Assembly (NCBI GenBank): GCA_965227295.1
Contig: OZ245742.1
Coordinates: forward strand, 224,001-288,000
Length of the DNA stretch: 64,000 nt
Direction: 5' to 3'
Source: Leptonemataceae bacterium
GTDB taxonomy: Bacteria > Spirochaetota > Leptospiria > Leptospirales > Leptonemataceae
Shown: positions 1,476 to 64,000 of the stretch, one piece after another
Layout of the letters: each line of letters begins with the position of its first letter
How positions within the stretch are numbered: the first letter of the stretch is position 1
The notes under the pieces: generated by a model
The model's database searches: none
Told to the model about the DNA's origin: nothing
What the model saw: the letters and a program-made list of their open reading frames with translations, nothing else
Made by a program: the position numbers and the translations under genes

Positions 1476-2828
1476 ATGAAAGAATTCTTGCAATTCCACG
1501 TTCGCTTTGCGCTTTCTTTTTTTCGCCGGGCGAAGCGTCTCTCCGCCGGCGAGCTGGGCGAAGATTTCGTGCGCTCCTCGTACCTTGAGATCTATACGGT
1601 CCTGCGTTATCTTTATCTGTTTTTGCCGTTCATCTTCACGCCCTTCGTCATATTCGACCTCTACATGCACTTCGTCCTGGGCAGCGACAACATGCGGTTG
1701 CTGGTCTTCAACGCGTTGTTCTACGTCGCGCTCTTTACCATGCTCATCGCCATGAGCATGACGCCCCTGCATACCGGCGAGCGCGCGGTGCGCATGCTGA
1801 AATTCGTCTGCCGCGCGGCGGCGCTTGTCCTCGCGTGCAGCGGCGCGGTACAATCCGTCACGATTCTGAAAGGCAGCAACGACCTTTCGATCTTTACGGT
1901 GGCGGTACTCGGCGTAGCGGTAACGATGCGTTTTCCGGACGCCACGCGGCTGTTCATTTACGGCGCCTGTTATTCGATCCTGTACGGATACATGTGGCTC
2001 GGCAACCACTTCGATTCGGTGCTCTTCCAGAACTCGCTCTTCGTTTTAATGATCGCTCTGATCTTCGACCGCGTTTCGTACTTCGCCTCCGCCAACAACT
2101 TTCTGAAGACCCGGCGCATCTTAGAGCTCAACGACCTGCTGGTCGAAGAGGATCTGAACAAGAGCCACATGCTGGGCATCGCCATCCACGATCTCAAGAG
2201 CCCGCTCTCCGGCATCGCCGCGACTTCGCGCCTGCTCAAAGAAAATCCCGACGACTTTCCGCCGGAGGAACGCCGCGAGATTCTGGAAGAGATAGAGGCC
2301 TCGGCGCATCGTTTGTTCGGCAACGTGGAACAGCTTGTGAATCTCGCGTCCCTCAACGCCAGCGATGCCCGACCCACCAGCGATGCCTTCGACGCCGGCG
2401 AAATGATTCGCGAGACCGTACGCAATCATTCCTACCAGGCCTCGTTCAAGGACATCACCATTTACACGAAGTTCGCCCGGAACGTACTGCCGCTCAAGTC
2501 CGATCGCGCTCTCGCCTCGCGCATTCTCGACAATCTACTTTCCAACGCGATCAAGTTCTCCCCGCCCGAGTCCAGCGTATGGGTGCGCGCCGACCGGAAC
2601 GATGCGGAAAAACAACTGACCTTCGAGGTGATCGACGAAGGACCCGGTTTTTCCGCCGGCGACAGGGAACGACTCTTTACTCCGTACAAACGTTCAGCGA
2701 GCGGCGGCTTAGGATTGTACCTGGCGAAGCAACTCTGCGACAAGTTGGGCGGTGAACTCGAACTGGCGGCGGAGAGCGGCGACGAGATCGGCGCGCGCTT
2801 CGTGGTCCGACTGCCGGATTTAGGCTGA
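1476..2828 (+). CDS. Membrane sensor histidine kinase
   Basis: About 6 TM helices; H-box AIHDLKSPL, N-box NLLSNAIKFS, G1 DEGPG, G2 GGLGL. Start set at ATG 1476. Confidence 0.9.
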   Translation: MKEFLQFHVRFALSFFRRAKRLSAGELGEDFVRSSYLEIYTVLRYLYLFLPFIFTPFVIFDLYMHFVLGSDNMRLLVFNALFYVALFTMLIAMSMTPLHTGERAVRMLKFVCRAAALVLACSGAVQSVTILKGSNDLSIFTVAVLGVAVTMRFPDATRLFIYGACYSILYGYMWLGNHFDSVLFQNSLFVLMIALIFDRVSYFASANNFLKTRRILELNDLLVEEDLNKSHMLGIAIHDLKSPLSGIAATSRLLKENPDDFPPEERREILEEIEASAHRLFGNVEQLVNLASLNASDARPTSDAFDAGEMIRETVRNHSYQASFKDITIYTKFARNVLPLKSDRALASRILDNLLSNAIKFSPPESSVWVRADRNDAEKQLTFEVIDEGPGFSAGDRERLFTPYKRSASGGLGLYLAKQLCDKLGGELELAAESGDEIGARFVVRLPDLG

Positions 2829-39004: not shown

Positions 39005-39410
39005 TCGCAAAAGGCGCGAATCCGTATCCGCCCCGCGGATAGAGCGGGGCTCCGGGGTGCGAATTCGCTTCCTGGATCTTTACGACGAAGACGCCGTTCG
39101 GTGCGCCGTACCACATTCCCCGGCATGACCTCCGTTCGTCAGTTGGAACCAGCCGTCCCCATACAAGGCTTAATGTACACTCACCGCCACTTACACCACG
39201 ATCCGGGGCGTCCGCGAACAACCGATACATTTCTGGTAGTTCAAGAGCTGCAGTTCGCTACCGCCGTCGTGAGAAACATGGAGTAAGTTGCAGTATAGTG
39301 AAGGGGATTTTTTGGCTACAGCTTTGCGGGAGTTGTGGATTTTCGTTTTGTTAAGAATGCTGCGTTCGACCCGGGACGCTGCTTATGCGACTCAGCTACC
39401 GCAACGTGAC

Positions 39411-52345: not shown

Positions 52346-53851
52346 ATGTCTCGCCTGGCCGAGATTTTTTCCCCCGCGAATACGGCCGGACTACTGCCGA
52401 ATAATCCCTGGCTCGCTCTCTTCCAGAAGAACGACTGGCCGGAGTATCTCCAGCTCATCGCCCTGCTCTACGACGCCGTCGAAACGGACGGCCCGCGCGT
52501 GGAGTACGACCTCGCCCGGATCATCATCGAACACTTCTACGAAGATCGCGATCCTGACAGCCGGGTACAAAAAGCGAGTCAGTTCTATCGCATGGCCGTC
52601 GACGAGTTGGAGATCTTACGCGAGATCTACAGCAACACCGGCGAGCGATTGGTAATCGCCACGCGCAACGGAAAAAATCTTTTGCGCATCTGCGAAGAAC
52701 TCATCCGTAGCCGCCGCCGTTTTTCCGGCACGGGAGCGGACGTCATGCTCGGCGCACTCAACGAACTTCTGTTGTATCGTCATCCGATTCCGTTACAGGA
52801 TGCGATTGCGCATCACCAACAGCGCATCGCGGAGTACGAACAAGACATGGACCGCATGCGCCGGGGCGGCGTACAGGCCAGTGAGTTTCTCGGCGACGGT
52901 TCTTCGCCGGAAGAACTCTTCGTGCAGGCCGAAGAAGCGGCCCGGCAGATTCTCCTCGCCGGTGAAGACATCAAAGACGCCATCGAAACGGCGCGCCGGG
53001 ATCTGGCGCAGAGCTACCGCAATCCGGAGTTCTCGGCGGGCCAGGCCATCCAGCACGTAGCTGACTTTCATGTTAAGTTACGGAGTAGCCCCGAGTATGC
53101 GAGCTTTCGGCGCGCAAGCGATCTGCTGTCGTTCATCGACGGATTGGGCGGACGCTTTCGCGAAAAGGACGTCTCGCATATCTTTTTTCTACTGGGATCG
53201 CGCGGCACCGTGCCGAAAGATCTTCTGCACAGTAGCGATCTTCGCCGTTTCTCGGATCGCTTCGCCGGTCTGGAACGAGAAATCGCCGCGAAGATCAGCG
53301 AACAGTTGAACATCCTGCGTGTTCAGGTGCATTACGTTCTGGAAAACACGGGCGGTCGCGCGCAGGCGGACCTGAGCGAATGGATGGCGCTGATGAGCAA
53401 CGCCGGCACCGCGGCCCTCGACTTTCTCGGCCGGGAAAGACTGGAGTACAATGTCGGCCTCGACGTCGACATTGGGCCGGTGCAACCGAATCCGCTGGAA
53501 GTCGAGTTCGACGTGACAGCGTATCGCCCGGAGCGCAACGAACTGAACGAGGACGAATGGCGACGGATGCACGAGCTCCTGCTCTCCACGGAAGAAGCGA
53601 CCATCGGTCGGGTCGTCGAGCGCATGCGGGACTATCTTTCGCGCAACGGATCGGTTCGGCTTTCGGAATATCCGATCGAGTCGGGCATACCGGAAATTTA
53701 CATTCTGTCGAACATTGAATCCTACGCGGACGATATCCGTTCCGAGTTTCTAAACTACGCGGACATCGCCTTTCATTCGAAGGCCGGCGCCGAATTCATT
53801 GTTCAGGACCTCGCCGACCGCCGGTTTTCGTTCATGGAGCAGGCATCGTGA
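52346..53851 (+). CDS. jetA: Wadjet JetA (DUF3375-like kleisin)
   Basis: 501-aa helical protein, first of a 4-gene overlapping operon containing an SMC ATPase and a TOPRIM nuclease. Confidence 0.75.
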   Translation: MSRLAEIFSPANTAGLLPNNPWLALFQKNDWPEYLQLIALLYDAVETDGPRVEYDLARIIIEHFYEDRDPDSRVQKASQFYRMAVDELEILREIYSNTGERLVIATRNGKNLLRICEELIRSRRRFSGTGADVMLGALNELLLYRHPIPLQDAIAHHQQRIAEYEQDMDRMRRGGVQASEFLGDGSSPEELFVQAEEAARQILLAGEDIKDAIETARRDLAQSYRNPEFSAGQAIQHVADFHVKLRSSPEYASFRRASDLLSFIDGLGGRFREKDVSHIFFLLGSRGTVPKDLLHSSDLRRFSDRFAGLEREIAAKISEQLNILRVQVHYVLENTGGRAQADLSEWMALMSNAGTAALDFLGRERLEYNVGLDVDIGPVQPNPLEVEFDVTAYRPERNELNEDEWRRMHELLLSTEEATIGRVVERMRDYLSRNGSVRLSEYPIESGIPEIYILSNIESYADDIRSEFLNYADIAFHSKAGAEFIVQDLADRRFSFMEQAS

Positions 53852-54534
53852 CGACGAACGCATCTGAGTTTGAAAAACCTGGCTCCGCCGTCGAGCCCGA
53901 CCTGGCGTTGGCAGGCATCATTCGCGGCTGTCTCTCGCGACGCTTCATCCTGCGATCCGAGCGCCAGAAACTCTTTCTCTCCATTGTCGAACAACGGGGC
54001 GACCTCAGCGATTACTTCAGCCGGATGGGTGCCCGGCTCGTCGTCGACGAAGGCCTGGGCATCGCCTATCTCCAGTCCCTGCCGGAACACGACGAGGACA
54101 TCGACTACCGTCTGGGCCGAACGAAACGCCTGAGCGCGCTCGAAACTCTGTTGCTCTTCGTGCTGCGCTGGTATCGTAACAACTACTTCTTCGGCGACGG
54201 CGAGGCGGACATGGAGATGCCCGTCATCGACGTCGAACGCATCCGCGAAATGCTCGAAGAGTACAAGCCGGCGAAAGCCGAGCGCGCCTTCGAACAAAAA
54301 CTGAAACGTGCCATCGATAATTTCAGCGATCTAAAAATCTTACTGAAGACCGATCATCCCGAACGCTTCGCCGTCTCCCCCGTCACCGACGTCCTGCTGC
54401 CCGCCGACGGCATTGAACGCTCGCTGAACCGGGCCCGTGATTACTTCGCGTCCACGACGCAAGACGAAGCAGATGCACCGTCTTCGGACGAAGACAATGC
54501 GAATCCCGACGCGAACGCGGATTTGGACTCTTAA
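53848..54534 (+). CDS. jetB: Wadjet JetB (DUF4194-like KITE subunit)
   Basis: DYFSRMGARLVVDE..GIAYL and RLSALETLLLFVLR motifs; GTGA overlap with jetA. Confidence 0.82.
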   Translation: MTTNASEFEKPGSAVEPDLALAGIIRGCLSRRFILRSERQKLFLSIVEQRGDLSDYFSRMGARLVVDEGLGIAYLQSLPEHDEDIDYRLGRTKRLSALETLLLFVLRWYRNNYFFGDGEADMEMPVIDVERIREMLEEYKPAKAERAFEQKLKRAIDNFSDLKILLKTDHPERFAVSPVTDVLLPADGIERSLNRARDYFASTTQDEADAPSSDEDNANPDANADLDS

Positions 54535-54547
54535 CAGGAACCCCGGT

Positions 54548-57500
54548 TTGAACGCGAACAACAACGGAAAGACCGAGAAGAACGGGCATCACGGAAATCG
54601 CCCGGTCAACATAAGCCTCGGTTACACGTTGCAGCGCGTCGAAACTCTCGACTGGGGCAACTTACGCGGCTGGCAGCCCATTGAACTGAGTCTCGCCGAC
54701 GGCGGCTCGCGCCTGTCGTTGATCGCGGGCATCAACGGCTCCGGTAAGTCCACCATCATCGACGGCATCATGACGGTGCTGCTCCCGTTCAAGCAGCTCC
54801 TGCAACTCGGCGTGACCCACGACTTCGAAGAAGGCCGGTCCGGTTCTCGGAACGTCGATGACTACCTGCTCGGCAAACACGCGGCGACGGGCGGTGATGC
54901 CGTCGAAGACGATCAGGTCTACAGCCGCGACACCGGCGTTTCGTGCATTCTCCTGGTCTTTCGGCACAACGAAAATCCCGAACGCTGGCTGAGCCTGGCG
55001 CGCGTGTGGTGGTACGCCGGTCGCAAGATCCGCGAAGATTCAGCGAATATCATCGCCCGGGAAAATCTGACGATCGGTGCGAGCGACGCGCGCACGCCGG
55101 AAGACGAGGGCGGCGGCCTCTTTCAAACGCCGCGACTCAGTCTGTGCGACGATGCCGGTCACATGTTCGCGAGTCTCGCCGCCATGAAGCGCGGCCTGCC
55201 GCAAAAGAGCGACCGCATTCAGGTCTTCGACCGCGTGAACCAGTACTTCGAAACGCTGCGCAAGTATCTCGGCGGCGTCAGCAAAGAAGATCTGCGCATG
55301 CTCAATCGCGCCTTCTACATGAAGTCCATCGGCCACATCGACCGCTTCATTCGCGAGCACATGCTCACCGAGATGGAGCACGAATCGATTCACTCTTTGA
55401 TTCAACATGTCAAGCAGGCCGCGGAGATTTCCCGGGACATCGCCAGAAGCGAAGAGCGCGTCGTAGCACTCAAGGTGATCACCGGCAACCTGCGCACGTT
55501 TCGCGAACACCAGATTCGCATCGAAGCATGCCGGCTGGAAATTCGACTCCTGCGAATCTACGAAAAATGGGCGGAACGCCGGGACATCGAACTCGAACTG
55601 ACGAAACTGGGGCACGGCATCGAGACGGCGGAGGCGCAGCTCCCCGGACTTCGGCAACGCGTGGATGATGCCGAACGGGAGTCCAACAAACTCCAGCAGG
55701 AGCTGAACGCCAGCGAAGGCATCCTGCGCCTGGAACGCCTCAAGGACGATCGCAAGAATCTCGAGAAAGACATGAATCTCATGCGCCGGGAGCGCGAGAC
55801 CGTGGAAGAACGCTGCGTTCGTCTCGGACTGGAGCGGCCGAAATCCTTCGAGGGGCTGCCCGCGTTCCGGGAGGCCGTGAAAGAAGTTCGTAGCGGCCTG
55901 GTAAACGAGGCCGCGGAATTTGCGGCACATCAAAAACAGGTGCACATCCGCGAAGGCGAGCTACGCACGGAGACGGAACGCGTACGCGGTGAGATCGAGT
56001 TTCTCTCGAAGAACCGCACCGTCATCGATGAGCAGACCTACCGGATAAAAACGCGCTGCTTCGAGGAACTCGGCTTAAGTAATACGGATTTGATGTTTGT
56101 GGGCGAGCTCATTCGCGTGAAAGCGGACGCCCATCAGTACCGCCGCGCGGTGGAATCGGTGCTCGCCCCCATCTCTCGCAACCTGCTCTGCGCTCCGCAT
56201 TGCCTGGACGATGTCACCGAATGGTTGAATCGCACGCAGCTCCGCCGCACCGTCGTAATGAAGCGCATCCGATCGGAAGAACTCGAGGCCCGGCCGGCGG
56301 AGAAGGCCGCAAAGGATTCCATCCTGAATCGCATCGAGCTGCGACCGCGCGAAGACCATCCGTTCTACGACTATCTCTGGAACTGGTTGCGCGCGGAGTT
56401 TTATCATCGCGTCGTCGGCGTCGAAGAACTCCGCAGCAGCGTCGACCGCGCGGTTACCGTCGAAGGCCTGGTAAAATCGGACCGCCGGACGCAACGAAAG
56501 TACAAAGAAAAGCTGGAGTACAGTTTAGGCTGGGACAGCCGGGAACGCCAGGCAGAACTCGTCCGGAATTTGAACGCGCTCCAACGAGAAGACGAGCAGA
56601 TTCGCGCGGAAAACGCCGCCCTTGAAGAACGTCGGCGGGACCTGTCCGCCCGGGAACGCGATGCGGACGATTTGCTCAAAGAAGCCCACGAATACCTCGG
56701 TCTCCCGGAGCACGAAGAACGCTATGTCCGGCTGGAACAGGAAATCCTCGTTCTGGAACGAGACGACACGGATTTGAACGCCCTGCGGGAACTTGCCGAA
56801 GAAAGCAAACGCCGCTACGGCATGCGACAACGCGAATTGGTCCAGCTCGAACAGAACCTCGAACACGATCAGCGGAACCGGGAGAAGCTGACAAACGAAC
56901 GCGCGGATCTGGAATCGATCATCAATGATCGCCTGGGAGTTCCCCCGGAAGGAGATCGGCGGCCGCTCCGCGAGGCGGTCCCGGACTGGGAGGAGCGTCT
57001 TAAGTCTATTCAGCAAATTCTTAGTGTAAAGAATCTACAGGTTCACGAATACGAACGCGAGATTGAATCGGAGATCAACAGCCGCACGCTGAGTCGCAAC
57101 AATACGCACGTCCGGGATCGCTTGAAAAACTACCAGGAGGATCATCACGATCCGAATTTGCCGGCAGACTTTCATCCCGAAACCGTCACCGTGGACGGCA
57201 TCGATCGTTTCCTGGAAGCGTGGAACGAAGCCCTGGAACGCCTGGAATCGACCGGACTGCCGGCCGCTCGCGAAAAATGGACGCGCTTTTACAATGACAC
57301 GCTCATCGACGCCATTAAGGCCGCCGTCAACGAAATCCGCACGCAGCAACGCGAAGTCGAAACGAACATCGCCAGCATCAACTCGGTGCTGCGCGGGGTG
57401 GACTTCGAACGTCTGCCGGAGGGCAATCGTTATCTTAAGATCGAGGCGCAACGCAGCAACGATACCCGCGTCCGTCGTTTTCTGAAAGACGTCAAAGAAG

Positions 57501-58132
57501 TCGAGGGTGTTCTCGCCGGAGATATTCGCGGTCTCGGAGCGTCCGAAAACGCAAAACAAACGATGGCGGTGCTGGAACCGTTCGTCGAAAGCCTGACGGA
57601 AGATCCGAATTATCAGGCCTACGTCGTCGACGTGCGCAATCATCGCACGTTCCAGGTGCACTCGCTGCGCCGCAATCCCGACGGCGAAGACGTAGTCGTC
57701 GAACGCTTTGCGGGCGCGCGGACGGATTCCAAGTCGTCGGCGCAGACCGCGCAGCTGGCGTACACTCTGCTCGCGTCTTCGCTGGCGTATCGTTTTCATT
57801 TTCATACGCCGGCGCGCGGGCAGGACAGCTTGCGGCTGATCATCCTCGACGAGTTCACGAGCAAGTTCGATAACGAGAAACCCCACGACGTCATTCGCCT
57901 GCTGACCGACATGGGCTTCCAGGCCCTGCTGGTAAGTCCGCTGGACAAGGCCGATCTCCTGGCCGAGCACATCAATCGGCTGGTCTTCGTGTTCAAGGTT
58001 TCGGCCGAGGAATCCAAGGCGTATTCGCATCCGATTCGTTCACGCAAAGACTACGATCGCCTCATGGAAAATGCCAGGCAAATCATGCGTGCCGGGCAAC
58101 CGGCTGGAACCGAGCGAAATGCGGGAGCGTAA
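54548..58132 (+). CDS. jetC: Wadjet JetC SMC-like ATPase
   Basis: Walker A GINGSGKST, long coiled coils, hinge (FVGELI), signature-like KSSAQ, LAYTLLASSLAY, Walker B LIILDE. Start uncertain (TTG 54548 after AGGA; frame open from 54437). Confidence 0.9.
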   Translation: MNANNNGKTEKNGHHGNRPVNISLGYTLQRVETLDWGNLRGWQPIELSLADGGSRLSLIAGINGSGKSTIIDGIMTVLLPFKQLLQLGVTHDFEEGRSGSRNVDDYLLGKHAATGGDAVEDDQVYSRDTGVSCILLVFRHNENPERWLSLARVWWYAGRKIREDSANIIARENLTIGASDARTPEDEGGGLFQTPRLSLCDDAGHMFASLAAMKRGLPQKSDRIQVFDRVNQYFETLRKYLGGVSKEDLRMLNRAFYMKSIGHIDRFIREHMLTEMEHESIHSLIQHVKQAAEISRDIARSEERVVALKVITGNLRTFREHQIRIEACRLEIRLLRIYEKWAERRDIELELTKLGHGIETAEAQLPGLRQRVDDAERESNKLQQELNASEGILRLERLKDDRKNLEKDMNLMRRERETVEERCVRLGLERPKSFEGLPAFREAVKEVRSGLVNEAAEFAAHQKQVHIREGELRTETERVRGEIEFLSKNRTVIDEQTYRIKTRCFEELGLSNTDLMFVGELIRVKADAHQYRRAVESVLAPISRNLLCAPHCLDDVTEWLNRTQLRRTVVMKRIRSEELEARPAEKAAKDSILNRIELRPREDHPFYDYLWNWLRAEFYHRVVGVEELRSSVDRAVTVEGLVKSDRRTQRKYKEKLEYSLGWDSRERQAELVRNLNALQREDEQIRAENAALEERRRDLSARERDADDLLKEAHEYLGLPEHEERYVRLEQEILVLERDDTDLNALRELAEESKRRYGMRQRELVQLEQNLEHDQRNREKLTNERADLESIINDRLGVPPEGDRRPLREAVPDWEERLKSIQQILSVKNLQVHEYEREIESEINSRTLSRNNTHVRDRLKNYQEDHHDPNLPADFHPETVTVDGIDRFLEAWNEALERLESTGLPAAREKWTRFYNDTLIDAIKAAVNEIRTQQREVETNIASINSVLRGVDFERLPEGNRYLKIEAQRSNDTRVRRFLKDVKEVEGVLAGDIRGLGASENAKQTMAVLEPFVESLTEDPNYQAYVVDVRNHRTFQVHSLRRNPDGEDVVVERFAGARTDSKSSAQTAQLAYTLLASSLAYRFHFHTPARGQDSLRLIILDEFTSKFDNEKPHDVIRLLTDMGFQALLVSPLDKADLLAEHINRLVFVFKVSAEESKAYSHPIRSRKDYDRLMENARQIMRAGQPAGTERNAGA

Positions 58133-59293
58133 ATGATAGATGAGATCGAGAAACTTTTCGATCTTGAATCTTATCTCGATCGAGCTGAAAAAGACTTCTT
58201 GTTAAACGGCCGGGAAGAATTTCGGTTCTCCTTGCGTTTTACGCGGCGCGTGAAAGCCGGTCACGATCGCTTCGAAAAAGAAATTCGCGCCTTTGATTTT
58301 CTGCGCTTAGACTACGGTCGCACCGTTCGCAGCGGTCATGTGCGCGTCGGACGTATCAGCGAGATTGCCTTCGACATCGAAGACCTGCTGCGCCTGCGGC
58401 CGGAGTTACGTGTTGTGCGGCGGGCGTTTCTACAGGCATTCGATACGTCGTCGGCTTCCGCGGTGCGCACCTACGTGCAAAACAATTACGCGTTATGCCG
58501 GCGCAAGTTCGAAGTACTGCCGGACTGCGTTGATGTGCTCGAGTACCTGTTCGCGCATCGCGAATCCGTTCGCGGCCGGTACTGCCGGCAAATCCCGCAC
58601 GGAAAATCTACCAAGCTGATTGGACGGGAAGCGCTACTCCTCGGACTCTACGAAGCCGTACGACGCGAGCGCAGCGAAAATTCCGACGGCAATCAGCAGG
58701 CACTGAAAATTCGGTGGAGCGATTTCGTTGCCGACTTTGATCTGAGAACGAAGCCGGCGGCCTTTCTCTTCTGGGCATCCCGGCTTCGCATCGACGGACA
58801 TGCCATCGAAAATTTCGACGCGCTTCTGAGTGACGAAAATATTGATCGATTAACCTTTCCGGAAGTAAAGTTTGCGCTGATCGTAGAAAACGAAGAGACG
58901 TTCTACAGCGTTCGAGACGCCCTGCGAGATTTTTCGGCTCCGGCAGTGTTGATTGCCGGCGGCGGCGCGGCCGTCGGCGGCGCCGGTTTTCTCGCCGGGG
59001 TGCTGCAAGCCCGCCCGCATTATTACTGGGGCGACATGGACGCCTCCGGCTACGAAATCTTTCACGGCGCACGAAGCGTGTTTCCCGCATTGGAACCGCT
59101 GCTGATGAATCATGAAAGCCTGCGTCGCTACGAAAGTGTCACGCAGCAAGTCGCTCCAGTGAACCCCAGAACGGCGCGGGTTCCGCTCCTGGATTCCGAG
59201 TACCGCCGGGTGTGCCGGGACGGGTTGCGCATCGAGCAAGAGCACATTGCCATCGAAGACCTTCTTCAAATCCTCGAAGAATCGCTGCGCTGA
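58133..59293 (+). CDS. jetD: Wadjet JetD TOPRIM-fold nuclease (DUF2220-like)
   Basis: LIVENEETF, YYWGDMD.SG, LLM, RIEQE motifs. Confidence 0.88.
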   Translation: MIDEIEKLFDLESYLDRAEKDFLLNGREEFRFSLRFTRRVKAGHDRFEKEIRAFDFLRLDYGRTVRSGHVRVGRISEIAFDIEDLLRLRPELRVVRRAFLQAFDTSSASAVRTYVQNNYALCRRKFEVLPDCVDVLEYLFAHRESVRGRYCRQIPHGKSTKLIGREALLLGLYEAVRRERSENSDGNQQALKIRWSDFVADFDLRTKPAAFLFWASRLRIDGHAIENFDALLSDENIDRLTFPEVKFALIVENEETFYSVRDALRDFSAPAVLIAGGGAAVGGAGFLAGVLQARPHYYWGDMDASGYEIFHGARSVFPALEPLLMNHESLRRYESVTQQVAPVNPRTARVPLLDSEYRRVCRDGLRIEQEHIAIEDLLQILEESLR

Positions 59294-60556: not shown

Positions 60557-61471
60557 TCAGCCGCGGCGATACACATGCAGTTGATGCGTGGCGATGGCCT
60601 CGCGCACCGCCGACGGCAGACTCGACAGATTCAACTCCTGGTCCGCCCCGTCGAGACAAATCCCCGCGTCGAGAATCTGCAACGTCGCGCGATCCACGAC
60701 GCACTCGTACTTCTCGCCGCCGAAGCGGTACTTCACGATCGCCTGGTCGCCGCCCTGGCTGCGCCAGTCCACCAGCTCCGCGCCGGTGTGCGCGAGGGCC
60801 GCAATGACACGATCATCGAACGTCTCGTCGCGGCGACGACGATCGCGCACGAGTTCTTCCAGCTCACGTTCCGCGACGGCGCGACGCTCGGCCTCGCGAC
60901 GCAGGTACGCTTCTTCTTCGGCACGCAACCGGGCGAGCTCCGCCGCCTGGTGTTGCAGTTCGCGATCGAAGACCGCGGCCGCGTACGCGCTCGCGAGCGA
61001 AGGCACCACGCCTTTTACGTGATCGATGCCGCGGCCGTCGCGATGTACGCTGCCTTCTTCAAAGGCGTCGCGCACCTGACCTTCGGCTTCGCTCTCGAAA
61101 CCGATGCCGGTAAAAATGTAGTGCCCGTCGTACCACACCCGCGCGGTGATCGGGGCGAAACGTTCCGGCGGTTCGTTCGCATCGATGCCGAAGATGTTTT
61201 TCTGAAACGTATCCCCGACGAAGCGGCCGTTATAAAAGTGACCGCTGACTTCTTTGAGATCCGCATGATCTTCCAGCGCCGTTCGCGCCGTGTCTTCGTC
61301 GAGGGCCTCCGCGACTTCCACGAAGCGGCCCTGTTCGCGGAAACGATACCAGCCCGGCGCCGGTCGTTCTTTCAGGCGATACGCGCGCTCCGCGTCACAC
61401 ACCCGGTCGCCGCCGAAGTACGGCAACACCAGTTCGCGATCGCCGCCCTGTAGAAATGCGCGATAGTCCAT
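60557..61471 (-). CDS. Hypothetical protein: beta-rich N-terminus, coiled coil, C-terminal domain with E2-like GICL motif
   Basis: Start ATG 61471 (MDYRAF), 304 aa; QILDAGICLDG near the C-terminus; first gene of the JAB-Ubl-E1 run. Confidence 0.7.
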   Translation of the reverse strand: MDYRAFLQGGDRELVLPYFGGDRVCDAERAYRLKERPAPGWYRFREQGRFVEVAEALDEDTARTALEDHADLKEVSGHFYNGRFVGDTFQKNIFGIDANEPPERFAPITARVWYDGHYIFTGIGFESEAEGQVRDAFEEGSVHRDGRGIDHVKGVVPSLASAYAAAVFDRELQHQAAELARLRAEEEAYLRREAERRAVAERELEELVRDRRRRDETFDDRVIAALAHTGAELVDWRSQGGDQAIVKYRFGGEKYECVVDRATLQILDAGICLDGADQELNLSSLPSAVREAIATHQLHVYRRG

Positions 61472-61642: not shown

Positions 61643-61802
61643 GAACAGCGCCGGGGATGGGCACGCGAGTGCGATGCAGTTTCGTTTGGTTACGTGACCG
61701 GAATCGAACCGGCTCCTCAAGATTAGAAGTCTTGTGCTCTACCTGTGAGCTACACATGCTTGTAACTGCGCTCCGATTGCATGCCCATTCCCGGGGCTGT
61801 TC
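61643..61802 (-). ncRNA. Structured tRNA-mimic RNA, copy B, containing a tRNA-Arg(UCU)-like cloverleaf
   Basis: About 24-bp closing stem; cloverleaf at 61687-61759: GCTC-ACAGGTA-GAGC, CAAGA-CTTCTAA-TCTTG, GCCGG-TTCGATT-CCGGT, 5-bp acceptor stem, then CCA. Confidence 0.8.
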
Positions 61803-62417: not shown

Positions 62418-64000
62418 TCAGTACGGCTTCGTCAGCAACTGAGTCCGCAGCACTTCCTCGACGAGAGACAGCTTGCCGCTTTTCAGCGGTTGCGCCTTCA
62501 GGATCGCCTGAAGACTGCGCTGCACCTGGTAGACGTCCGAAAACTGATCGACGTCCACTTCCGTGTACGGCAACTTCATCTCCACGGCCGCCTTGCGCAC
62601 CGTTTCGCCGCGCGACCACGCCACGTTGACAATGTGCGCGAACGCCGAGACATCGAAGCCGCAATCACGAAACGCCTTCGCGAACTCCGCGCCGGACTCA
62701 CCGGCCTCGTCACCGACGGCGAAGACGATCAGGTCCGCGCCGTCCGGAATCGTAACACCGGACTGCTTCAGCGCACGCACGCCGGAGCCGTAGACCGTGC
62801 CGCCGCCCGCTTCGATGCGCGAGAGCATGTGCTCCACGCCGCGCCGCGACGGATGACGCAAACGCAACACGGTGCCCACGGTATCAAAGGCGACGACGTG
62901 CAGTTTCTCCGGCTCGAAGCCCTGCAAAATTCCCGCGAGCGCCTCTTTCGATTTCTCGATGGCGCCGGACATCGAAGCCGACGTGTCGATCAAGAACACG
63001 ATGTGGATGTCCGCGTCTTCCGTCGCTGCGTCCACAGCCTTCTTGACGGCGCCGTCCGCCGCATCTTCCAACGCTGCGACGTTCTCGCGGTTACGCACGT
63101 TCTTTGCGATGTTGCGCGCCCGCTGATCGTCCAGATTCTTAAGTGCATCCTGCCAGCGCTTACGAATCTCCTCGTGCTTCAACAACCCCAGGTCCTCCAG
63201 CGTCGGCGTGAGAATCGCGAGATCCCGATCCGACACACCGCCGGCTTCCAGTACAGCGACGAAGATCGCCGGACTCAGGCCGATCTCCGGCGGCAGCATG
63301 CCCGTGACCTGCTTGTAACCGAGCTGTTTGTCCACGATCAGCGCACAGATTTCCGCTTCGCTCTTGTTTTCGAAAGAAAGGCTCTCGCGATTCAACTCGC
63401 CCAGGCCCACGCTACGGTGACCCTGTTCGTGCTGCTTCTGCGGCCAGTTCAAAATCTCGAAAAAGCGCTGCGACTCCGGCTTGTATCCGACCATGCGCGC
63501 CAGGTTCTTCACCGTCTTCGCGTAACCGGCCTTCTTCAGGCCCTCGAGCAACTGAATGTTCATCTCGCGGAAACGCAGCCAGTCTTCCACGGCCTTGTAA
63601 TAACGGCCCGTAAACGGCTTGCGTTTCTGCACATTGCCGAAGCCCAGTTCCTTGTTGATCGCGACAACGCCAGGCAACGACAATACGTCGCCGATACGCG
63701 CAATCATCTTCGGCGAAAGCATCTTCGCCGAGCCGCGCTCATAGGTCTTCAGCATGGCCTCGCCGACTTCTCGAAAGTCGTCGTCGTGAAACAGCAGTTC
63801 GCGTTTGCCGTTGTTCTCGTCGAACACCGGTTCGCCGCTGCGGTTCTGCACGAGCATGAACGCCGCGCACACGACCTTAATATCCCGCCACGTGGTCTTA
63901 GTCGCCACGTAGGACGCGAGCCGGGCCGCGAGTTCCTCGTTCACCTTGTAAATGTCCGCGATCGTGCCGTAGACCTGCACGATGGCGTGTTCGTTCGGCC
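62418..64000 (-). CDS. vWA-domain protein with large helical N-terminal region (TROVE/Ro60-like architecture); 5' end outside the window
   Basis: MIDAS DTSASMS ... GGT ... VGDE in the C-terminal ~195 aa; basic helical N-terminal region; frame open to the window edge. Confidence 0.8.
   Translation of the reverse strand, partial: PNEHAIVQVYGTIADIYKVNEELAARLASYVATKTTWRDIKVVCAAFMLVQNRSGEPVFDENNGKRELLFHDDDFREVGEAMLKTYERGSAKMLSPKMIARIGDVLSLPGVVAINKELGFGNVQKRKPFTGRYYKAVEDWLRFREMNIQLLEGLKKAGYAKTVKNLARMVGYKPESQRFFEILNWPQKQHEQGHRSVGLGELNRESLSFENKSEAEICALIVDKQLGYKQVTGMLPPEIGLSPAIFVAVLEAGGVSDRDLAILTPTLEDLGLLKHEEIRKRWQDALKNLDDQRARNIAKNVRNRENVAALEDAADGAVKKAVDAATEDADIHIVFLIDTSASMSGAIEKSKEALAGILQGFEPEKLHVVAFDTVGTVLRLRHPSRRGVEHMLSRIEAGGGTVYGSGVRALKQSGVTIPDGADLIVFAVGDEAGESGAEFAKAFRDCGFDVSAFAHIVNVAWSRGETVRKAAVEMKLPYTEVDVDQFSDVYQVQRSLQAILKAQPLKSGKLSLVEEVLRTQLLTKPY

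Follow-up and report, generated by a model that had tools for sequence, protein, structure and literature searches.

A role in phage defence has recently been demonstrated for ubiquitin-like conjugation in bacteria. In CBASS, Cap2 is a fused E2 and E1 and Cap3 is a JAB protein; the E2 part of Cap2 lacks the HPN motif, and the enzyme uses the C-terminus of another protein. Bil and Bub are later-described bacterial operon systems built around a ubiquitin-like protein (Ubl). Several systems that combine a Ubl, an E1 and a JAB work without any E2, among them the sulfur carriers and the conjugation systems of Urm1, SAMP and TtuB. Sulfur carriers end in Gly-Gly, and trimming of their tails by a JAB is known for the CysO/Mec+ and QbsE/QbsD pairs; Uba4 is the activator of Urm1 in tRNA thiolation. 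In the Atg8/Atg4/Atg7/Atg3 system a Ubl precursor is cut to the Phe-Gly end with which Atg8 terminates, and is handled by a non-canonical E1 and a divergent E2. Ro60 consists of TROVE and vWA domains and is paired with Y RNA or a tRNA-like RNA.

Prokaryotic operons containing Ubl, JAB, E1 and E2-like genes were described by Iyer, Burroughs and Aravind (2006), and in the accessible text of that paper (Table rows 6c-6d) they include E2-like proteins that lack the classical His. The available portion of Kaur et al. (2020) deals with vWA-MoxR-FtsH ternary systems to which Ubl systems are joined, with RING E3 proteins and Ubl-E2 fusions, an architecture that differs from that of the cassette described below. 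The available part of Altae-Tran et al. (2023) mentions three systems associated with tRNA arrays, in which RNase R, RNase H and an exonuclease occur, and the ThiF protein in the accessible part of the Methanoperedens ECE paper is unrelated to the cassette. No paper describing the cassette was found; the supplementary figures of Altae-Tran et al. (2023), which lay outside the coverage of the search, could bear on priority.

The window analysed here, a stretch of 64,000 nucleotides, carries on its minus strand a cassette that runs in the order vWA protein, tRNA-like gene, a protein without a family name (referred to as X), JAB metallopeptidase, 84-residue Ubl and 197-residue E1 (Table 1). X, JAB, Ubl and E1 follow one another at intervals of 6, 22 and 3 bases, the first of these being the distance from the stop codon of X to the start of the JAB gene. 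The vWA gene is truncated by the end of the window; its full product of 599 residues is encoded at L015:4419-6218 (minus strand). The cassette is present as a single copy in its own genome. We read X as the cysteine-bearing third enzyme of this Ubl cassette, a Cys-dependent partner of the E1 and the Ubl, and would place the probability of this reading at about 0.5. Converging on the cassette from the opposite strand is a complete type I Wadjet system, JetABCD (52346-59293, plus strand), of which JetB, JetC (1.3e-141) and JetD are strong in PADLOC; its first gene, encoding 501 residues in the position of JetA, gives no JetA match.

Table 1. Positions of the cassette features in the window, and of phage loci in which other genes are interleaved with the cassette.
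Feature	Position	Strand	Evidence or remark
vWA-domain protein, first cassette gene	62418..64000, on to 64217	-	Pfam VWA_CoxE 7.7e-07, VWA_2 5.4e-06
tRNA-like gene, called tRNA-Arg (TCT)	61687..61758	-	Rfam tRNA 53 bits; ARAGORN; between vWA gene and X
X	60557-61471	-	ORF, 304 aa from ATG; adjoins JAB gene; no family name
X N-terminal beta-rich domain	61022..61471	-	residues 1-150; strands in 13-123 (AlphaFold2)
X long helix, probable coiled coil	60791..61003	-	residues 157-227; AlphaFold2 pLDDT 81-98
X C-terminal Cys domain	60560..60790	-	residues 228-304; four strands, DAGICLxGxD loop, helix
Cys272 codon, candidate thioester acceptor	60656..60658	-	Cys invariant in family alignments
JAB/JAMM metallopeptidase, 117 aa	60197..60550	-	Pfam Prok-JAB 5.3e-05, 23.5 bits; cut-off 25
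Putative ubiquitin-like protein precursor, 84 aa	59920..60174	-	ends RPKVPFG then AG
Minimal E1-like adenylating enzyme, 197 aa	59323..59916	-	Pfam ThiF PF00899, 1.1e-20
Phage loci with interleaved genes	L026:5650-9759, L029:9219-13008, L030:4498-5070, L032:10033-15081, L033:13666-15958		

X is a real gene and not a chance ORF, since a word-indexed search returns 148 homologues at E <= 0.001 (typical length 274 residues) and 1,055 cluster representatives, 597 of them at E <= 1e-10, are recovered at the same threshold with a profile of its last 95 residues. A longer reading frame from a TTG at 61720 was set aside because it would run into the tRNA-like gene; M1, D2 and Y3 of the MDY start are each kept in at least 90% of 30 aligned homologues. 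The AlphaFold2 model of full-length X (mean pLDDT 83.7) agrees with the build that the initial annotation had proposed, namely a beta N-terminal region, a coiled coil and a beta-rich C-terminal end with a helix. The length of the long helix differs between homologues. In the C-terminal domain four strands (within 232-269) are followed by a helix (287-294), and a second model of this domain alone, made from 150 diverse sequences (pLDDT 76.7), contains a helix, four antiparallel strands, a short ICL strand and a further helix. Both models place Cys272, which lies in the stretch LQILDAGICLDG (residues 264-275), 3 residues past strand 4. The loop at 271-282, which begins at the Cys, is of low confidence in the full-length model, and the Cys loop is the lowest-confidence part of both.

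The relatives of X are mainly verrucomicrobial, as judged from contig titles and the few source names given. In full-length members of the family (about 300-380 residues) the Cys domain is C-terminal, and shorter fragments are also listed. The initial annotation had named conservation of the Cys as a check on its proposal, and Cys272 proves to be invariant in 30/30, 12/12 and 150/150 sequences of successive alignments; its equivalent is also found in a plasmid homologue. Across the 150 aligned sequences the only invariant columns are Gly270 and Cys272, both in the DAGICLxGxD loop, no His or Asn of the C-terminal domain is conserved, and the family alignments contain no second conserved Cys near Cys272. 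C257 and two His of X are invariant among close relatives and are lost in more distant members. A zinc site formed by H228, C257, C272 and H299 was considered and ruled out, as L007, L009 and L012 have other residues in place of H228, C257 and H299. With no conserved His there is no Cys-His pair left, which argues against a Cys-His protease of the papain type. Pfam, NCBIfam, PADLOC and PHROG hold no family for X, 36 diverse representatives of the family all stay below the curated Pfam cut-offs, and the ESM Atlas gave no usable match. On the evidence of these sequence searches the C-terminal domain of X is a family without annotation and so far undescribed.

The loci used to judge gene linkage were gathered through the C-terminal motif of X only; 13 of them come from species genomes, 10 from viral contigs and 44 from metagenomes. 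Where at least 1,800 bases are available downstream of X, the E1 is found in 28/30 loci, the Ubl in 29/30 and the JAB in 26/30. In the two loci without an E1, inserted genes place JAB and Ubl more than 2 kb from X and little contig remains past the Ubl. The order of the cassette genes is identical in the bacterial loci and in all 10 viral contigs; each of the latter contains vWA, X, JAB and Ubl, and nine of the ten contain the E1 as well, the remaining contig (L027) ending too early.

Reduced forms of the cassette also occur. X and E1 are adjacent, and neither Ubl nor JAB was found, in two Pyrinomonadaceae genomes that contain the vWA gene (L012:4895-6470 and L013) and in the metagenomic locus L077. 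On the Dolichospermum plasmid NZ_CP051207.1 (L080:2671-4352) X and E1 are present and vWA, Ubl and JAB were not found; the X of this plasmid is annotated as a hypothetical protein beside a ThiF gene and ends in SGICLSG. Searching plasmids by tblastn with the E1 gives two records, one of which is an X and E1 pair, and searching them with the JAB gives no match; a tblastn search of deposited phages with X gives two records. These bare adjacent pairs mark X and E1 as the irreducible evolutionary core of the cassette, which is how an E1 and the thiol partner that belongs to it should behave. The vWA protein of L012 ends in Gly (…PERKG). A 91-residue ORF upstream in L012 was considered as a hidden Ubl and rejected, being unlike a Ubl on inspection.

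In 27 of the 28 loci whose sequence extends at least 2,500 bases upstream of X the vWA gene is found. This association is consistent with X being an adaptor or scaffold that would link E1 and Ubl to the vWA protein, and perhaps to RNA, or a substrate modified by the Ubl, Cys272 then being modified, redox-active or structural. The predicted build of X, with two barrels, a helix of 70 residues and a small domain, would likewise suit a scaffold, and its C-terminal domain is as similar to the N-domains of DsbC/G and to VirB8-like domains as it is to E2s. However, a structural Cys is rarely the sole invariant side chain in 150 diverse sequences, and X keeps its E1 on the Dolichospermum plasmid, where vWA, Ubl and JAB were not found. 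We consider an adaptor role unlikely.

The reading of X as a third enzyme of the cassette raises the matter of its relationship to E2 proteins, as the initial annotation regarded X as a highly divergent E2-like enzyme whose Cys accepts the Ubl from the E1. The E2 family models of Pfam (UQ_con and Prok-E2_A to E) do not match X at E <= 1, the E2 models of NCBIfam and PADLOC do not match it either, and the X-family profile finds no E2 among PDB sequences. Searches with Pfam, PADLOC and NCBIfam reveal no other E2 candidate within the cassette. Prok-E2_B is found in 0/151 genomes of the phylum, the control genomes being likewise without a match, and the PADLOC Cap2 model PDLC00847 detects ordinary ThiF regions only, in 8/301 genomes. 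No HPN occurs anywhere in the sequence of X, as had been noted at the outset, and the motif is missing from the family consensus as well; this weakens the case for a classical E2 and not that for an E2-like protein, since several prokaryotic E2-like families also lack a conserved His. The resemblance between ICLD and the UBC motif, which the initial annotation had quoted, comes down to 4-5 letters with S, D or E after ICL, and taken alone does not rise above chance.

Structures were compared as well. At E <= 0.001 Foldseek returned no match for the full model of X in the PDB, or for the domain model in the PDB and BFVD. Comparing the C-terminal domain with known structures gives scores of 4.5 and 3.7 for FANCL, 4.4 for Ubc9 (80 aligned residues, r.m.s.d. 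4.0), 4.3 for Ctf19-Mcm21 (RWD), 4.2 for each of Spc24/25, UBE2E1 and the Tsg101 UEV domain, 4.1 for residues 7-148 of Cap2 (PDB 7to3, which we take to be Cap2 and which appears in both the structure comparisons and the E1 sequence comparisons) and 4.0 for a BRISC subunit. When full-length X is compared, no E2 is among the matches listed, and the C-terminal domain fits Sec3, VirB8-like, PepSY, cystatin and NTF2 domains and the dimerization domains of DsbC/G equally well or better. The domain has the common arrangement of a helix on four strands, in which helices 3 and 4 of UBC have no counterpart.

The existence of Ubl/E1/JAB systems that are free of E2 counts against X being an E2. The proposal of a divergent E2 survives in part. 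What stands is the Cys as the one conserved side chain (in all 150 sequences), the tie of X to E1 and Ubl across the loci, and the persistence of the X and E1 pair where Ubl and JAB were not found; what does not stand is membership of the UBC/E2 family, for which no model gives a match. That X works like an E2 is to us the likeliest reading, at about even odds; the fold of its small domain is not demonstrably UBC, and X cannot be classed within that family.

The 84-residue protein gives no family match in database searches. It is read as a Ubl because of its position between JAB and E1, its conserved RPKVPFG end and its variable tails, and from these sequence features we infer that it is a ubiquitin-like protein. 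In 43 sequences R76, P77, V79, P80, F81 and G82 of this end are invariant and K78 is nearly so; in L029 the PFG motif is absent from the match to the Ubl. Beyond the Gly the tails are variable, from 0 to more than 20 residues, and 14 of 66 homologues stop at the Gly itself. Across 46 loci, which do not include L029, JAB and tail occur together in 39, JAB without a tail in 3, neither in 4 and a tail without JAB in 0 (Fisher p = 2e-4, a value inflated by kinship and by two near-duplicate phage pairs). This pattern is the signature expected of a precursor that is cut by the JAB, exposing the Gly for adenylation by the E1. The JAMM motif of the JAB protein is intact, HTHPGEMLRFSEED fitting HxHx7Sx2D, and a phage orthologue reaches 30.1 bits to Prok-JAB.

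Across 41 sequences the E1 keeps the glycines of its GxGxxG motif, and also C152, without exception. The solved proteins nearest to it by sequence are Uba4 (1.2e-12), SAE2, MoeB, ThiF and Cap2, and the PADLOC Cap2 models match it at 2.4e-12. Against the PRTRC model TIGR03736 the E1 scores 36 bits, compared with a cut-off of 144.75, and for X, JAB, Ubl and vWA there is no PRTRC match at E <= 1.

The first cassette gene encodes a protein whose N-terminal region of about 400 residues belongs to no family. Its look-alikes in the Atlas are mostly viral, phage-rich vWA clusters, with TROVE and vWA_Ro60 clusters ranked lower (score 0.90-0.92). Among 301 genomes of the phylum one has TROVE; hhalign pairs the vWA protein with that TROVE protein over only 39 columns, where the vWA domain begins, at a probability of 43.6%. 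A protein of about 600 residues with a C-terminal vWA domain, adjoined on the same strand by a small tRNA-like RNA gene, would by analogy recall Ro60; unlike Ro60, none of the seven family members compared matches Pfam TROVE at E <= 5. The likeness to Ro60/TROVE may serve as a lead only. The C-terminus of the vWA protein gave weak Ub-Mut7C matches (E 0.02-0.04) and was considered as a fused Ubl; this was rejected, as hhalign gives a probability of 0.2% against the Ubl family.

The tRNA-like gene upstream of X has a T stem of 4 bp and one mismatch in the acceptor stem. Its body and 5' leader (TTACAAGC) are common to the window and to L002:7530-7602, L003:4678-4751, L006:7862-7934 and L007:7385-7458. 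Among these five elements the anticodons differ (TCT, CAT, AAG, AGA and TGA) and the acceptor stems are imperfect, and tRNA-like elements called Leu or Ser are still without the long variable arm. To judge by their sequences these elements probably do not serve as ordinary decoders, and they may instead be protein-binding or processing elements.

Transfer RNA genes are found around the cassette in general. At least one lies on the same strand in 23 of the 24 loci whose sequence reaches 5 kb or more upstream of X, 17 of these loci have four or more, and the maximum is 19; the four opposite-strand tRNA genes of the searched loci are all in L027. The cassette sits directly 3' of same-strand tRNA arrays in L001, L006, L007, L024-L033, L042 and L073, which comprise bacterial chromosomes and phage contigs, and in the window the array is reduced to the one tRNA-like gene. 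Six of the 10 viral contigs with the cassette exceed 250 kb, the largest being 529 kb, and seven have 12-19 tRNA genes, mostly just upstream of the cassette. The 197 kb phage Rctr197k (KX853510.1, L034) has, in this order, 30 tRNA genes, a vWA-like gene and X, with a ThiF-like gene further on; X is without annotation in the deposited record. Giant phages and the tRNA-array islands of chromosomes are the native setting of the cassette, which makes tRNA or translation the probable sphere of its targets.

Other features of tRNA and rRNA were observed in these genomes. The genome of the window contains 86 tRNA genes, including two large arrays (26 and 15 genes) at C1:4547528-4559530. These arrays are some 4.3 Mb away, and the cassette does not recur in their vicinity. 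Within the window ARAGORN calls a tRNA-Arg (GCG) at 39290-39383 (plus strand) that, at 94 bases, is unusually long for Arg. In L007 a gene for a 23S rRNA intervening-sequence protein (2265-2747, plus strand) lies just upstream of the tRNA array of the cassette, with a DDE transposase nearby.

The genes inserted into phage cassettes serve RNA repair and tRNA modification, and those recognised encode 2H phosphoesterase, ATP-dependent ligase, RNA ligase, SpoU methylase, cytidine/tRNA-type deaminases, NADAR, PP2C, NUDIX, 3'-5' exoribonuclease, MT-A70 and HNH endonucleases. So many RNA enzymes in the neighbourhood could indicate that X is itself another Cys-dependent enzyme acting on RNA or protein, such as a ligase, a transferase or an unusual peptidase, and is merely co-regulated with the Ubl genes; weak Foldseek rows relate its N-terminal domain to nucleic-acid-binding OB, S1 and HIN proteins (E 0.07-0.5). 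We regard this as very improbable, for X has no conserved cofactor or nucleotide-binding motif, Cys272 has no conserved His, Asn or second Cys to work with, and the pairing of X with E1 is too tight for co-regulation alone.

The same setting bears on a sulfur relay, in which the E1 would make a thiocarboxylate of the Ubl, Cys272 of X would carry a persulfide and the sulfur would pass to tRNAs of the array. Such a relay would fit the position of Uba4 as the nearest solved E1, the frequent same-strand tRNA genes and the tRNA and RNA enzymes interleaved in phage loci, and tail-trimming by JAB offers a precedent by analogy with CysO/Mec+ and QbsE/QbsD. However, the Ubl ends in Phe-Gly, as opposed to the Gly-Gly of sulfur carriers, neither the cassette nor the scanned phage inserts contain a rhodanese, a cysteine desulfurase or a PP-loop thiolase, and the E1 falls far under the equivalog cut-offs for ThiF (70.7 versus 159 bits) and MoeB (46.5 versus 449 bits). 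A sulfur relay is thus quite improbable. What the cassette would have in common with CysO/Mec+, QbsE/QbsD, Urm1/Uba4 and TtuB/TtuC is an E1 of the ThiF type, a JAB, the trimming of a small Ubl at its tail and a connection with tRNA; it differs in the Phe-Gly end, in having no sulfur-transfer or thiolase enzyme and in possessing an extra protein, with an invariant Cys, of a new family.

If X is the third enzyme of the cassette, a sequence of steps can be proposed. The JAB would trim the variable tail of the Ubl and expose Gly82, which the E1, by virtue of its family, would adenylate. The activated Ubl would then move, perhaps by way of Cys152 of the E1, to Cys272 of X as a thioester. X, probably a dimer formed through its long helix, might pass the Ubl to a target, and the choice of target might be made by the double-barrel domain at its N-terminus or by the vWA protein. 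A much bolder extension, which we would call a long shot, is that X is an independently invented 'E2' of non-UBC type in an RNA-linked Ubl-transfer machine of giant phages. Here a Ro60-like vWA protein carrying the tRNA-like RNA of the cassette would recruit X through the OB-like barrels of X. Once loaded by the mini-E1, X would attach the Ubl to something associated with tRNA, whether a host anticodon nuclease, a translation factor or even, conceivably, an RNA end, and the tRNA array of the phage would so be protected or controlled.

Among the described systems, the operons of Iyer et al. (2006) are similar in that, in the accessible text, the four roles are united in one tight operon, which includes a JAB and a Ubl that has Gly at its C-terminus. 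The cassette is unlike them in that X falls outside Prok-E2 and UQ_con and has a double-barrel N-terminal domain and a long helix, in the small size of the E1 (197 residues), and in the inclusion of a vWA protein and tRNA genes in the unit, the term 'vWA' occurring 0 times in the accessible text of that paper. The comparison with Atg8 is one of analogy: both would have a Ubl precursor with a tail that is cut, a Phe-Gly end and a non-canonical E1, whereas Atg4 is a Cys protease and the putative processing enzyme of the cassette is a JAMM metallopeptidase.

With Cap2 and Cap3 of CBASS the cassette would share the obligate pairing of an E2-like candidate, X, with an E1, together with a JAB, and the X and E1 pairs without a Ubl may recall Cap2. 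It is unlike type II CBASS in that the PADLOC E1-E2 models align to the E1 only, leaving X without a match, and in that CD-NTase models match none of the five genes of the cassette. If Cys272 carries the Ubl, X would represent a new E2-type family with more than 1,000 unannotated sequence clusters, and tagging by Ubls would be linked to tRNA biology in the conflict between phage and host. The cassette would follow the logic of Ubl conjugation in phage defence, but with a carrier from no described family and mainly on the side of the phage.
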